From IMG/VR virus record IMGVR_UViG_3300036904_000005, positions 1-35,900 of that record: 35,900 nt of DNA; one strand, given 5' to 3'. This document shows positions 31,036 through 35,900 of this stretch, piece by piece. This DNA comes from a virus. Taxonomy: Duplodnaviria; Caudoviricetes. A program made the translations under genes and the position numbers. The notes under the pieces are model-generated. The model saw only the letters and a list, made by a program, of their open reading frames with translations, was not told where the DNA came from and made no database searches. Within the stretch, counting starts at the first letter, position 1, and each line of letters begins with the position of its first letter.

Positions 31036-31253
31036 GCGTGCAGCCTCCGGATCTTGTTGAACATGCGCCGCAGGTAATAGCCGCGCACGATGGCGATCAC
31101 TGTGAAGATCAGCCCCATGTTGAACGCCGCGCCCGCGTGGATCTTAAACCCGAACAGCGGGAGGATCAGCATGTTGGCGCACCAGTTGATCGAGAACCCT
31201 ATTACGATGTTGGCAGCAGTCTCCAACGCTGAGCCCAGTCTGGTCTGACTCAC
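31032..31253 (-). CDS. Small two-TM membrane protein (common phage family)
   Basis: MSQTRLGSALETAANIVIGF...LPLFG...IFTVIAIVRGYYLRRMFN. Coupled at both ends. Confidence 0.8.
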   Translation of the reverse strand: MSQTRLGSALETAANIVIGFSINWCANMLILPLFGFKIHAGAAFNMGLIFTVIAIVRGYYLRRMFNKIRRLHA

Positions 31254-32836
31254 TTAAGCCTCCACTGTCCGTTGACGATAATGATCAGTTGGCGCTTGCC
31301 GTCCGCGTGGAGCAGACAGTGCGCGTTCAGCCACGAACTCGGGCCACCGTTATACTCAAGGCGTAGCCGGGTGCTAGTCCCAACTTGGTAGCATCCTTCT
31401 TCGATAGCCGGACTGTGACTGTGTCCGATGATCGACCGAACTCCGATGCGGCGTAGGTTCTTAGCTGAGCCACGAGAGCCGTTAGGCCCGCGATCCCCAT
31501 GAAGACCAAGCTCAACGCCGCCCAAAACAAAGGATTCGTTTCCACCTAAACACCTGAACCTTTTCGGATCTGCCGCGAGCGACAGCCGACTGTTGAACCA
31601 ATAAGGGAATGGGCTGGGGTACTCCGTGCCACCGTTGCCCATCTTCGTGCCGTTCACCATGGCGAACGCCGTGGCCAGGTAGAAGCTAGCATTGGTGGGG
31701 TCCGCCCGCCAATCCGTGTTCACCACCCAGCGCCGCAAGAAGTCGTCGTGATTCGAAGCGACCACTACTGACCGACAGTTGTCAGGAGTGTGGTCGCGAA
31801 TGTAGTCAATGGCCCTGAACGTCTCGGCCTTCACGTCGTCTCGCCCGGTCTGCCGCTTGGCGATAGCGTTGAACGCGTTGCCGAAGTGATGCGGGTTCGC
31901 CGAGTATCCGTCCAGCACGTCGTGCCAGATCTTGTGCTCGGGCTCCAGCATCGCGCAGATCTCGTCGGTCGCCGCCTCGACCTTCGGATCTATGAAGTCA
32001 ACATGCGTATCGCCCATAACCAGAGCGAGAGGGCGGGGAGCACGACGGACGCCAGTAGATGTGTAGCGCGTCTCAAGGTCCGTGAACGAACGGGTCTTCT
32101 TGTCGAAGTTGACATGCCTGATATGGAATATGGGACCGTCAATCTCGACGATGATCGCCGCGAGCGCATGGTGAAACTCTCCCTTTTTTCCGGCCTTACT
32201 GTCGGTGTAGTTCTGAAGCGTGCACGCCCCCGTGGTCGTGATGATCTTCGCCATCTTCCCGGAGGGTGTGGCGACTGATCGCAGTTGGAGCTTGGTGTGC
32301 GCAACGATGCATGACTCCGCGCCGGAGATACTCTCAAACCCTGATAGCGGGTCGCTGGCAGTCGGCTGCGTCTTCACGTCGCCGAGCAGCACCAAGTTCT
32401 TGTTCAGCGGCGCCCGCACGTTCCACAGATACGGCTGGACCTCGACGGCCCACTCCTCTGCGTTCTTCTGCGACAGCGTCCATCGCGACGTTGGGTTCTT
32501 GTACCTGATCGGTATTACCAACAACTCCGCTTGAAGGGCCTTGCGGGCTGTGATCAAACACCCCCATAAGTCCTTGTGGACCGGCGTCGCGTTCTGCGCA
32601 GCAGTGATGATGTACGTCTGCGTGCCTTCGCGGAGCGGCCGCTTGAACACGGCGGGGCGCTTGGACTTGTTGCCGCTGCGATCCGTCGCGGGCGCGCTGG
32701 GGTTGGTCGTCGAGTAGCAGTACGCCCGTGGCGCGGAGCCCGACCTACACTCCCAGCGTTGCTTCCCCGACTGGGCTTTCTGGCCGCGCGTCAGGTTCTT
32801 TCCGCACTTTGGGCAATCGTACTTTGGGTTTTCCAT
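31250..32836 (-). CDS. T5 A1-like protein: N-terminal Zn ribbon plus calcineurin-like metallophosphoesterase
   Basis: CPKCG...SGKQRWEC...C; IITAAQNATPVH; GDTH, HDVLDG, SNHDD, HGD and GHSH metal motifs; C-terminal YQVGTS...EYNGGPSSW. Confidence 0.8.
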   Translation of the reverse strand: MENPKYDCPKCGKNLTRGQKAQSGKQRWECRSGSAPRAYCYSTTNPSAPATDRSGNKSKRPAVFKRPLREGTQTYIITAAQNATPVHKDLWGCLITARKALQAELLVIPIRYKNPTSRWTLSQKNAEEWAVEVQPYLWNVRAPLNKNLVLLGDVKTQPTASDPLSGFESISGAESCIVAHTKLQLRSVATPSGKMAKIITTTGACTLQNYTDSKAGKKGEFHHALAAIIVEIDGPIFHIRHVNFDKKTRSFTDLETRYTSTGVRRAPRPLALVMGDTHVDFIDPKVEAATDEICAMLEPEHKIWHDVLDGYSANPHHFGNAFNAIAKRQTGRDDVKAETFRAIDYIRDHTPDNCRSVVVASNHDDFLRRWVVNTDWRADPTNASFYLATAFAMVNGTKMGNGGTEYPSPFPYWFNSRLSLAADPKRFRCLGGNESFVLGGVELGLHGDRGPNGSRGSAKNLRRIGVRSIIGHSHSPAIEEGCYQVGTSTRLRLEYNGGPSSWLNAHCLLHADGKRQLIIIVNGQWRLK

Positions 32837-33299
32837 TGCTGAGTCTCATGGTGGTGACGGGAGGCCCCGAGTAATGATCGATACGGCACGCGATCTCGAC
32901 GGCCTTCGCGGCCGAGGCGCCCATATGCATAGCAGCCAGCGCGGCCTTCGCGCCTGACCCCACCGAATAAAACTCGTCCAGGATCTTGATGCCACGACAG
33001 TAGGCATCGAACTCCCAGAGCCCATCGCGTTGGAGTACCAGACAGGTGAAGTCGGCCTCTCCAGTCAAGAAGGTATCGACAGGTGCATCTTTGCCGCTGC
33101 CGTACCAATCAACGAACACCATGCCGGGGCTTGACTCCCCGGCAGTGGCGATGATCACTTCCTGCTCTACGCCGTTCAGCGTGACGATCTTGCGGAACAA
33201 CTTCTCACAGAGAAACATGCGGGCGCCGCCGCCTTCAGTCTCAAGGGTGGTGCGACTGTCAGCCGCGATCACCCCGTTCCGATAGGCGATGGTTGTCAC
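32745..33299 (-). CDS. Ntn-hydrolase, HslV/proteasome beta-subunit-like peptidase
   Basis: GTG start at 33299 (GTGA overlap) gives M-TTIAY...AADSRTT...K...AG...SVGSGA..A..AM..GA.A..AV.IA...D..SG, with an N-terminal Thr nucleophile. Confidence 0.85.
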   Translation of the reverse strand: MTTIAYRNGVIAADSRTTLETEGGGARMFLCEKLFRKIVTLNGVEQEVIIATAGESSPGMVFVDWYGSGKDAPVDTFLTGEADFTCLVLQRDGLWEFDAYCRGIKILDEFYSVGSGAKAALAAMHMGASAAKAVEIACRIDHYSGPPVTTMRLSNGKPKVRLPKVRKEPDARPESPVGEATLGV

Positions 33300-33550
33300 T
33301 GAGCTTCTCCCAATAGCATCCCGATAGTGCTGGTCGCGCGTAGTAGATCCGCCTGGATCGCAAGCTCGCAGTGATTGGCTTGGATCTTGTTCAACATCCC
33401 GCCGAGGATCTTCGCCCACCACGCGGGGTTGGGCTTGCGGAGTTCCAGCCCGCACATCGACGAGATCGTCACGTCGTAGTTGCGCCAGATGATCGTGCAG
33501 CAGACGATGTCGACTGCGCGGGCCAGCACCGTGACGTATGCGTTGTTCAT
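33296..33550 (-). CDS. Hypothetical phage protein
   Basis: ATGA-coupled. D......TISS..G......W......L......HC..AI pattern seen in small phage proteins. Confidence 0.7.
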   Translation of the reverse strand: MNNAYVTVLARAVDIVCCTIIWRNYDVTISSMCGLELRKPNPAWWAKILGGMLNKIQANHCELAIQADLLRATSTIGMLLGEAQ

Positions 33551-34209
33551 CGCTTCGGCTCCCAATACTGGCAGGTCTTCACTTTACACCAGCCCTTGCA
33601 CAGAAAACAGGGCTTCGGCGGGAAATTTTGATCGACGTGCGCCTGATGATACCGCGCGACTCTTGGCAGGAAATCAGCCCACACGTCCGCTGTCTCTGCC
33701 CTGGAGATCTTGGCGATAGTAGCTTTCTTGGTCGACATCCAGAGATAGCTCATGGTGATCTCTTCGATGCTCGGGTCCAGGTGGAACGTGACCGCCGCAT
33801 TTAACCTAAGCTGCTGGTCGTCGTCCTTTTGCTTGCCGGTCTTCCAGTCCCAGATGACAGCCTGCGGGCCGTTGATCTGGGTGAGGTCTGACTTCACCCG
33901 GAGCCACGCGTCCTTGGCGTACCACTCGACGGGCGTCCACTGGTCGTTGAGGCATATCTGCTGCTCGACGGACTTTTCACCGGGGGCGTCGTAGATCTTC
34001 TGGAACGTCGGCGTCCAGTGCAACAGGTTCAACGGCAGCTTCTGCCGCTTCTTCATAAACAGTTCGATGGCCTTGTGGACCTCGTCGCCGTAAGCCATCT
34101 GGTCGGACTTCTCGAACGGGATCGTCTTGCCAACGCTCTCGTGCCAGAACTTGCGGGGGCACTGCTCGTAATTGATCAGGCGCGAATAACTCCAAGCTGT
34201 TTGCTTCAC
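33547..34209 (-). CDS. PD-(D/E)XK exonuclease (RecB/Cas4-like)
   Basis: WSYSRL...QCPRKF, GDEVHKAIE, EQQI, KSDL, DWKTGK, QL, and C-terminal Cys cluster LCKGWCKVKTC. Confidence 0.88.
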   Translation of the reverse strand: MKQTAWSYSRLINYEQCPRKFWHESVGKTIPFEKSDQMAYGDEVHKAIELFMKKRQKLPLNLLHWTPTFQKIYDAPGEKSVEQQICLNDQWTPVEWYAKDAWLRVKSDLTQINGPQAVIWDWKTGKQKDDDQQLRLNAAVTFHLDPSIEEITMSYLWMSTKKATIAKISRAETADVWADFLPRVARYHQAHVDQNFPPKPCFLCKGWCKVKTCQYWEPKR

Positions 34210-34481
34210 TACGCTCTCCAGTCATCCATGTGCTTGTACAACGCTATGCTCAGCAGCGCGCACTCTCGTTCTCTTGTCAAGTTAGAGCGGTACATGCTCG
34301 TGCGCCATTGAAGGTTGTCCTTGTTCTCGGTAGCGAGGATCAGCAAGCTGTCGACTTTGATTTCGCCGCGCTCGATATCTCGTATCAAGATCTTCAGAAG
34401 ACTGACCGCATCGATGTCCAGGTTGGACTTGGCCTTGGCTTCCTTGCGCACCAGGTCCATGTCCACGATCTCATTCTTCAC
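34209..34481 (-). CDS. Hypothetical protein
   Basis: Probable GTG start at 34481 overlapping the upstream stop. About 90 aa. Its stop abuts the nuclease start. Confidence 0.6.
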   Translation of the reverse strand: MKNEIVDMDLVRKEAKAKSNLDIDAVSLLKILIRDIERGEIKVDSLLILATENKDNLQWRTSMYRSNLTRERECALLSIALYKHMDDWRA

Positions 34482-34741
34482 TGCATTCTCCGGTGGCGCC
34501 ACACGGCCACGAACGGGGTTTTGAATTCGAGGTACGGATCGCACCAACAAGTCTGGTGAGGGTCATGTTCGCACGGGCAGCCATGATCAACTGTGACGTG
34601 AACTTCAGGTACGCCGTCGTCGCCGCAGCCGTCGCGCGGGTCGAAGTGTCCAAGCATTCCTTTGAGTCGCGCTTCACGTGAGAGCCTGTCGGCGGTGTTT
34701 ACGTATTCCGGCAGTGCCTCGACGTTGTCTGACTTTTTCAA
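34478..34741 (-). CDS. Small His/Cys-rich protein (HxxxxxCWCxP); start uncertain
   Basis: EHDPHQTCWCDP...VWRH motif. Its stop overlaps the next GTG. Confidence 0.5.
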   Translation of the reverse strand: MKKSDNVEALPEYVNTADRLSREARLKGMLGHFDPRDGCGDDGVPEVHVTVDHGCPCEHDPHQTCWCDPYLEFKTPFVAVWRHRRMQ

Positions 34742-35009
34742 TGACGGCCTCCGGGTCCAGGTTGAGTATCGAGCAGACCCACTGGAACGATCCTATCACT
34801 TTCGTCTCGCTCCTGAACCACGCGAGCGCCGTCCGCTGATGATAGTGGTTGTCGGTCAGCAGGAGCCGCTTGCAGCCACGCGGGCAAACGTCCGAGTGGG
34901 AGTGGATCTGTGCCGGCGGGACGGGGATGGTGGCATCCTCCAGCGCCTGTACGAGGACCGCCATCCAGATGTGGCCGAAGCAGTCCATCTCGGGAACGTC
35001 AAAGTTCAT
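34674..35009 (-). CDS. Conserved hypothetical phage protein
   Basis: IWMAVLVQALEDA...ALAWF...GSFQWVCSILNLDP pattern. ATGA-coupled to the polymerase stop. Confidence 0.75.
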   Translation of the reverse strand: MNFDVPEMDCFGHIWMAVLVQALEDATIPVPPAQIHSHSDVCPRGCKRLLLTDNHYHQRTALAWFRSETKVIGSFQWVCSILNLDPEAVIEKVRQRRGTAGIRKHRRQALT

Positions 35010-35900
35010 TTCGCATTGCCGTAACTGTCTCCGTGTCCGACCTCGACCCCAATGGGCAGGTCAGGCAGGCAGTCTAAGCTGCGCGACATAACTTTTACAA
35101 TAGCCCCCTCACATATTTCTAAGCACTGTTCAGGGACATGAAACACAAGCTCGTCGTGCACCTGCAATGCTGGTGGCAAGCCCATGTCCGTAAGGGTTAG
35201 CTCGTCCCGCACTGCGACTATGCGGGCTAGGCCCTGCGCGATGTTCTCCAGGAAGTGTCCGCCCCAGATCTTGGCACCATCCTCCCACGAGAGCTTGGCG
35301 TCTTCGCCGTCGGCATCCAGCGCCCGGTACTTCCTGCTCCGGAAATATAACCCCTTCGGGCCTGACGCGATGTCCGGGTATTGGATCGGCATCCCGTTCG
35401 GTAGGATGATCCGCTCGTGGGCGAACGTGATCCCCTTCCAGACGTACAAGCCAGTGGGGTCGATCAGGAACTTGCCGGCCAGTTGGTCTAGGGCTTTCCA
35501 CAAGGCAGGAATACCTGGGTACTTTGAACGGTACAGCGCCACAATGCGTCGAGCTTCCTGGTCGGTGAAGATCACACCCTCGGTCGCCATCTTGTGCTGG
35601 AACTTCTTCCAGCCCATGCCGTAGCCGAGCCCGAGAATGCAGTTAGAGACAATCAACGCACCGTCATCGGTCTTAATAGTAAACCTATGTCGCGGTCCCG
35701 CTGATAATAGATCGTAGACGCGCGATCTCTTTTTCAAGGTCTCCCACTCGTCTCCTATTCGCTGCGTTCTCGCTTCGCGTTGCGAATCTAATATTGCCTG
35801 GTTCGTAGTTCCCAGTGACCGTAAGCATTCCGCTCCGGTGTCCAATGCTTGGCAGAGGATATCGGCGTCGCGTACCAGAGATTGCGCTTCCGACCACTGC
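35006..35900 (-). CDS. Family A DNA polymerase, C-terminal part (5' partial, intein-interrupted)
   Basis: Motif B C-half ILGLGYGMG, YRSKYPGI, ILPNG, ENIAQGLAR and motif C QVHDELV. The frame is open to the window end. Confidence 0.93.
   Translation of the reverse strand, partial: QWSEAQSLVRDADILCQALDTGAECLRSLGTTNQAILDSQREARTQRIGDEWETLKKRSRVYDLLSAGPRHRFTIKTDDGALIVSNCILGLGYGMGWKKFQHKMATEGVIFTDQEARRIVALYRSKYPGIPALWKALDQLAGKFLIDPTGLYVWKGITFAHERIILPNGMPIQYPDIASGPKGLYFRSRKYRALDADGEDAKLSWEDGAKIWGGHFLENIAQGLARIVAVRDELTLTDMGLPPALQVHDELVFHVPEQCLEICEGAIVKVMSRSLDCLPDLPIGVEVGHGDSYGNAK
35642..35900 (-). mobile_element. Intein (C-terminal part) in polymerase motif B
   Basis: Block F/G VYDLLSAGPRHRFTIKTDDGALIVSN followed by Cys+1 (35639-35641) and ILGLGYG. 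Confidence 0.88.
35685..35900 (-). pseudogene. Internally deleted HNH homing endonuclease remnant in an alternative frame inside the intein
   Basis: IGHRSGMLTVTG (an HNH-protein N-terminal motif) is fused directly to NYEPGNIRFATRSENAANRR (an HNH C-terminal motif). The catalytic core is missing. Confidence 0.75.

Follow-up and report, generated by a model that had tools for sequence, protein, structure and literature searches.

We found that the last gene of a peat phage contig, a family A DNA polymerase, very probably carries a natural deletion allele of an intein. The likely homing nuclease of this intein has its own HNH-family gene, which overprints the same DNA in the +2 frame, and what the deletion has left is predicted to be a splicing-competent, nuclease-dead mini-intein. 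The window analyzed is the whole 35,900-base contig. Its alleles, reading frames and breakpoints can be read directly from the DNA, and selection changes frame along the element in its relatives.

The polymerase intein and the peptide in its shifted frame

The polymerase gene lies on the minus strand and is truncated by the contig end. Comparison of the two contig ends recovered no terminal repeat, and the missing start of the gene therefore does not lie at the contig's other end. The frame is open across 35899-35006 (-), giving 297 aa (QWSEAQ...IVSN/CILGLGYG..., the slash marking the intein/extein boundary), and matches PolA (Pfam PF00476, E 1.8e-9; PHROG 17, E 1e-21). The boundary (IVSN/C) falls at 35642, and the block F Asp, the terminal Asn and Cys+1 are all present (VYDLL...IVSN/C; Table 1), as expected of a class 1 intein. 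The penultimate intein residue is Ser, not His, as it is in the relatives P0018, P0021, P0029 and P0030. Because the contig stops at 35900, the N-terminal 64 residues of the intein and the HNH start codon lie outside the window and are read from relatives; likewise, Cys1 and the block B T-x-x-H motif (C1, T55, H58), which are invariant in 54 relatives, fall beyond the contig end for the window allele. Elsewhere in the window, at 31250-32845 (-), a 531-aa ORF combines an N-terminal zinc-ribbon-like repeat with a metallophosphoesterase-like C-terminal part, as judged by eye.

Table 1. Coordinates of the intein, its nested gene remnant and the deletion junction in the window.
Feature	Position	Strand	Evidence
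C-terminal extein, family A DNA polymerase, from Cys+1 (CILGLGYG, motif B)	35006..35641	-	Translation, PHROG/Pfam matches, alignment
Extein codons 1-3, with three synonymous changes relative to this phage's intein-free allele	35633..35641	-	Loose ends in X8, X4, X2 and X5, compared by eye
Shortened intein as far as the window covers it (C-terminal 86 residues of a presumed 150)	35642..35899	-	83/86 identical to the 281-aa P0001 intein; family model has Hint fold
Intein C-terminal splicing blocks F and G (VYDLL...IVSN, Ser-Asn end)	35642..35719	-	D258 and N281 invariant in 54 inteins
C-side remnant of nested HNH gene (GNYEPGNIRF...NRR, coiled tail, natural stop 35685)	35685..35811	-	L007 and L043 have their stop at the corresponding intein codon
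Deletion junction with 2-base microhomology, 393 bases lost (131 codons in either frame)	35812..35813	-	Contig coordinates in X3, X4 and X5; 131-aa gap versus P0001
N-side remnant of nested HNH gene, +2 (YPLPSIGHRSGMLTVT)	35814..35900	-	Translation, alignment to relatives

Translated in the +2 frame relative to the intein, 35900-35685 (-) encodes a 71-aa peptide that reads ...YPLPSIGHRSGMLTVTGNYEPGNIRFATRSENAANRR...stop. Both frames thus read as the original prediction, made from this DNA, had quoted them, with the polymerase/intein frame open and the shifted frame ending at 35685. That prediction took the shifted-frame peptide for the fused ends of an HNH endonuclease, and a search for HNH families indeed recovered PHROG 374 (E 1.5e-5) and PHROG 3377 (E 5.6e-4), with no HNH match found in Pfam. 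With a cutoff of E<=1e-3, the peptide further recovers 37 proteins, each 202-256 aa long, and aligns as residues 32-61 of the full-length relative P0036 fused to residues 193-233. The nuclease domain of the window allele is accordingly not intact, HNH residues 62-192 being gone, and with the D-R strand and the cysteines deleted the remnant cannot be an active nuclease.

The deletion junction and the coexisting alleles

The window's stretch is carried by 20 public sequencing runs, nearly all of them peat or permafrost metagenomes, eight of which we compared as assembled contigs. No RNA run is among those listed, an absence that carries no weight on expression. A long allele has exactly 393 extra bases between 35813 and 35814, with bases 35812-35813 fitting either side. 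This is the point near which (35811-35813) the two HNH ends had been predicted to be fused, and the loss of 131 codons with both frames kept agrees with the frame-preserving removal of the nuclease core then proposed. Longer alleles had also been anticipated: single contigs span the long form in three of the eight runs (X3, X4 and X5), with both frames intact as far as readable, and one-sided pieces with the same loose ends occur in X1, X2, X7 and X13. The peat long allele was read at the 30-base loose ends that flank its middle 333 bases; read by hand, these ends give YIRGARAG and MDRVDND in the HNH frame, open as far as readable, and are free of stops in the intein frame.

The short allele is present in two of the eight runs. 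In X1 (2020), which is possibly the window's own source, it forms a contiguous 964 bases with 0 differences at a depth of 7.75; in X5 (2018), it covers 85 bases, 30 of them on the shorter side (below the 31-base rule), at a depth of 5.3 and with one difference at 35820. The phage also has an intein-free allele (K-T/C-I-L-G), which occurs in six of the eight runs (X2, X4, X5, X7, X8 and X13). X5 therefore holds all three alleles, the empty form at a depth of 19.5 and the long form at 10.1 beside the short one, depth not being equivalent to the share of genomes. The three synonymous differences beside the insertion site (Table 1) could represent a co-conversion tract or confer resistance to cleavage.

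The small number of runs with the short allele, the possible identity of X1 with the window's source, the short flank in X5 and the reliance on contigs would each be compatible with the short allele being an assembly or library artefact of the long one. We regard this as highly improbable: the same junction recurs in two studies, which speaks against a one-off assembly error; the X1 copy extends over its full length at the depth given above with no mismatch; the two short alleles can be told apart at 35820; the number of bases lost is divisible by three, and the lost part matches a disordered region of the intein; and other members of the family have undergone similar in-frame losses. Shortened inteins were seen in three of 35 polymerase homologues, namely P0023 (132 aa, of which 131 match the two ends of the 288-aa P0022, 156 aa having been lost), P0025 (50 aa shorter than P0026 and otherwise identical) and P0029 (132 aa). 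At L005:4139-4627 and L088:3738-4226, a 163-aa second intein contains a fused 83-codon HNH stump in the +1 frame (FGMLT joined to NCEWTT), which reads as a parallel loss of the nuclease core. Decay takes other routes as well: the polymerase frame is open in L057:2356-3162, with a short internal deletion and an altered catalytic motif, and in L023, where D-S replaces D-R.

The natural deletion is mirrored by comparison with a relative, P0001, that has a long intein of 281 aa in frame and is identical to the window at 83 of 86 residues over the shared part. Its 131 extra residues sit exactly between CLRSL and GTTNQ and are compatible with a +2 HNH at 89-101 of 131 positions when compared with four HNH proteins, against means of 27-30 and maxima of 40-45 in 500 shuffles for each. 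By comparison, the C-exteins of P0001 and the window share just 95 of 197 residues, a disparity suggesting that the intein moved recently from one phage to a different one. Viral contigs searched with the window protein (24 pattern hits, 0 confirmed) and with a 24-base pattern (0 hits) contained no close copy, and a metagenome scan with the P0001 intein returned three loci, all distant, without finding the DNA of the middle of the peat long allele.

In a structural model of the P0001 intein, pLDDT exceeds 90 at residues 1-90 and 251-281 and falls below 50 at 98-242, and all 39 rows listed by Foldseek are Hint-fold proteins (best E 3.7e-3, prob 1.0). The deletion takes out residues 94-224, almost exclusively the disordered filler, and on this model the remaining 150-aa intein is predicted to splice. 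Protein splicing is also suggested by residence in an essential host gene.

Layout, selection and candidate start signals in related inteins

Using a search profile built from this HNH family, we recovered 147 viral loci and 363 genome loci and kept the best 80 of each. The HNH had been predicted to lie out of frame in relatives too, and it falls in +2 within an open host frame in all 80 of the best 80 viral loci (in frame in 0), although a profile built from the family itself favors this layout. The best 16 genome loci, among the best 80 of 363, likewise have the HNH in +2 and an open host frame, one of them lying in an SNF2-like helicase and another being a broken plasmid-borne remnant, and no in-frame HNH was found among the 96 close loci. 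A candidate in-frame case, L158, was rejected, the HNH there standing at the start of a long unrelated ORF. Among the more distant HNH homologues at the genome loci, 62 of 64 have stops in that frame; hence, an open host frame is not a by-product of the HNH codons. The full-length relatives match PHROG 374 with E-values of 1e-30 and 1e-35. Scans of Pfam and NCBIfam with P0001, P0036 and P0054 found no intein or HNH family, and the Pfam intein models gave weak matches to three of 54 inteins; a profile of the family inteins matches the Neq and Mtu inteins (E 6e-4 to 6e-3).

The family inteins are 269-299 aa long and occupy two neighboring PolA sites. For the counts of start codons and selection, 73 of 84 loci were kept (11 being skipped by the boundary pattern), of which 57 remained after removal of copies more than 95% alike; among these 57 non-redundant loci, 25 have the insertion at K-x/C-x-L-G and 32 at K-x-x-x-L-G/C-G-Y. 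The two sites, both in PolA motif B, lie five codons apart (L001-L084), and HNHs from different sites can be 75-80% identical (L017/L028, L020/L024), a similarity that suggests site switching. In L005 and L035, the HNHs are 81% identical and the C-exteins 29%. At L102:2291-4636, a +2-HNH intein resides in an SNF2-like helicase (PNQPIE/C) rather than in PolA, a switch of host gene, and a Paraburkholderia plasmid (L090:2954-3901) has a broken polA fragment with a frameshifted intein start and an intact-looking HNH ORF. A second lineage of PolA inteins, at a G-K-L-x-E-N/C site (L094:4130-5059 and L170:1201-2150, the latter from APSE-2, EU794049), carries a 222-230-codon ORF with HNH and helix-turn-helix parts in +1, not +2, and is apparently a separate invasion; L094 has both kinds of intein, +2 and +1, in one gene.

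HNH genes are common in the introns of phage polymerases. An insert of this kind could in principle be a group I intron that contains an HNH ORF and is excised from the RNA, as the note 'type I self-splicing intron' in the annotation of phage SO-1 (NC_013600) has it. This is exceedingly improbable for the present family: Cys1, T-x-x-H, the block F Asp, the terminal Asn and Cys+1 are conserved, the fold is that of a Hint domain, both ends vary at the third positions of the intein frame, and no Rfam match was found in four loci or in window positions 33500-35900.

The reading as an intein with a gene nested in another frame is also reflected in selection. We calculated pN/pS as uncorrected proportions from 10 disjoint pairs among 20 collinear inteins. 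Across intein codons 100-250, the ratio is 0.26 in the HNH frame versus 1.22 in the intein frame; the pattern is reversed at the splicing ends, where the intein frame gives 0.26 and 0.18, and where the N-terminal part of the HNH overlaps the splicing domain, it is 0.32 in the intein frame versus 1.03 in the HNH frame. Selection therefore acts on the HNH frame in the middle of the element and switches frame along it, constraining the intein frame alone in the N-terminal overlap.

A candidate start for the HNH, which the original prediction had proposed to seek upstream, is found in the relatives. All 34 inteins with a W/F-V/I-C-H motif have an ATG in +2, the Val/Ile codon ending in A (as do 70 of 155 other Val codons, the background), and a Shine-Dalgarno-like word precedes this ATG in 33 of the 34 versus 18.9 expected, both counts overstating independence since the sequences are related. 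In most of the other inteins, an ATG lies two or seven codons further upstream. The conserved ATG and the Shine-Dalgarno-like site of the relatives thus argue for separate translation of the HNH. The same strand and the one-base offset would also permit a fusion produced by ribosomal frameshifting from the polymerase/intein frame, with no start of its own, and no internal sigma-70-like promoter was found in the upstream region of L011. Nevertheless, the retention of the ATG at a synonymous position, together with the Shine-Dalgarno-like word, makes frameshifting very unlikely, and a stop lies in the HNH frame of L001, L011 and L025, four codons ahead of the ATG.

With separate initiation as the preferred reading, we propose the following course of events. 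In the full element of 281 aa, a ribosome reading the polymerase would yield a precursor that combines a compact Hint splicing domain with 145 aa of disordered filler. This filler is the nuclease gene's shadow and would leave with the intein upon splicing. A second initiation, at the ATG spanning the Val-Cys codons of the intein and with the Shine-Dalgarno-like site in the preceding W-D-G-x-E codons, would give a nuclease of ~233 aa that may cut intein-free polA, whereupon the element would be copied (homing). Once the site is occupied, the nuclease would become dispensable to the phage; since lesions that close the polymerase frame would not persist, decay is proposed to proceed by 3n-base deletions. 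In the window, the loss at the 2-base microhomology took away the HNH's RLLNRL helix, its zinc-binding cysteines and the strand with the catalytic D-R.

A variant catalytic motif, known systems and wider meaning

The active-site motif of the family is D-R...Y...N, not D-H: the form D-R-x-D/N...Y...N...N is present in 55 of 57 members, in which D-R replaces D-H, such that the His acting as general base is absent and the Tyr is conserved. Solved structures searched with the HNH profile included no relative by sequence. Compared with known structures for a beta-beta-alpha-metal fold, the HNH model (mean pLDDT 81.5) has I-HmuI as its first-ranked match by E-value, a weak one (E 0.21); in a comparison scored by Z, PacI ranks second, also weakly (Z 4.5, rmsd 3.6, 86 aligned) and level with an unrelated chain, and CAD gives Z 3.1. 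The D-R...Y of the family may correspond to PacI at the level of residues. According to PMC5714182, PacI (His-Me finger group 20) is without the catalytic His and uses a loop Tyr, as the present family would if it shares a PacI-type variant chemistry; PacI itself is not a homing enzyme. The Arg at the place expected of the catalytic His and the weak fold matches would fit a nested ORF whose product survives as a relic that binds DNA without cutting it, or one that encodes a passenger nuclease with no part in driving intein homing. We consider this unlikely, given the purifying selection on the HNH frame, the retention of D-R, Y and N in nearly all members, the precedent, from the same paper on PacI, that a loop Tyr can replace His, and the occurrence of near-identical inteins in divergent polymerases (window/P0001; L005/L035).

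The layout with a likely homing nuclease in a shifted frame is not new in kind, as out-of-frame intein nucleases with mini-alleles have been published (Gosselin 2025, bioRxiv 10.1101/2025.01.02.630785; Phillips 2026, 10.64898/2026.09.14.751524); the peat phage is a well-documented new case. A search of mostly open-access literature turned up no report of a family A polymerase intein with an out-of-frame HNH, and the supplements of the preprints may list cases. The cyanobacterial DnaX intein has a LAGLIDADG nuclease in a +2 ORF, a Shine-Dalgarno site, frame-dependent selection and coexisting empty, mini and full alleles. The present element resembles it in the +2 nuclease, the Shine-Dalgarno-like site, a disordered in-frame filler, frame-dependent selection and the three kinds of allele in one population, but differs in having an HNH-family (D-R...Y) nuclease in a phage PolA rather than LAGLIDADG in a bacterial dnaX, an ORF whose start falls within the N-terminal splicing domain, and a deletion that is partial and has its breakpoints mapped. 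Actinophage inteins encode Endo VII-like nucleases in frame 3 of the same strand, and their decay to mini-inteins was predicted in the paper that describes them; strand, frame, phage setting and His-Me finger superfamily are shared with the present family. In that paper, however, the HNH inteins are in frame and the out-of-frame type is Endo VII-like, family A polymerase is absent from the 19 host proteins listed, and second ORFs are described as typically separate from the splicing domain; here, by contrast, the HNH ORF overlaps block B. The ShiLan domain of phage DNA methylases has an out-of-frame HNH (Arsenault et al. 2025, PMC11855218); its HNH gene is similarly in the third frame of an open host frame and apparently homing, though with no splicing domain and no detectable ribosome-binding site, unlike the full Hint domain and Shine-Dalgarno-like site found here.

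The same family is present in the cultured phages SETP5, Ent1, VT223, SO-1 and MR14, and in a phage collection, 167 of 192 matching records cover >=80% of the intein. In Jerseyvirus, Dhillonvirus and their relatives (SETP5, Ent1 and SO-1 gp38/gp39), the polymerase inteins are 299 aa long and occupy the same K-x/C-x-L-G site; they contain a 248-253-codon HNH ORF in +2 that is 48-49% identical to P0054 and hence of the same family. Unlike the window's deleted allele, these elements are intact. The annotation of Ent1 describes an intein 'encoding splicing domains', and that of SO-1 assigns the nested HNH to the intron mentioned above. The expectation that standard annotation misses this layout therefore holds usually, with the exception of the RefSeq record of SO-1, which lists the nested HNH as a CDS.

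In the peat phage, the decay of a dual-coding element, one step of the intein homing cycle, is thus documented to the exact base, with three alleles in one phage population. Moreover, the polymerase inteins long known from Jerseyvirus and its relatives, for which annotations usually name no nuclease, contain a hidden one that is intact, and surveys that read only the host frame consequently undercount mobile elements. Tentatively, and as a possibility that we hold to be rather less than even, the overprint may be an old strategy, stable and widespread, and not a passing stage before in-frame fusion. A His-less, PacI-type nuclease with its ATG and ribosome-binding site in the codons of the splicing domain would then have entered PolA inteins at least two times (in +2 at two neighboring motif-B sites and in +1 at a third), and deleted mini-alleles would persist beside full and empty ones, possibly spread in trans by the intact nuclease. 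If this is true, the three alleles would form a natural system for following the homing cycle through time series from peat and for testing it in E. coli phages that can be cultured.
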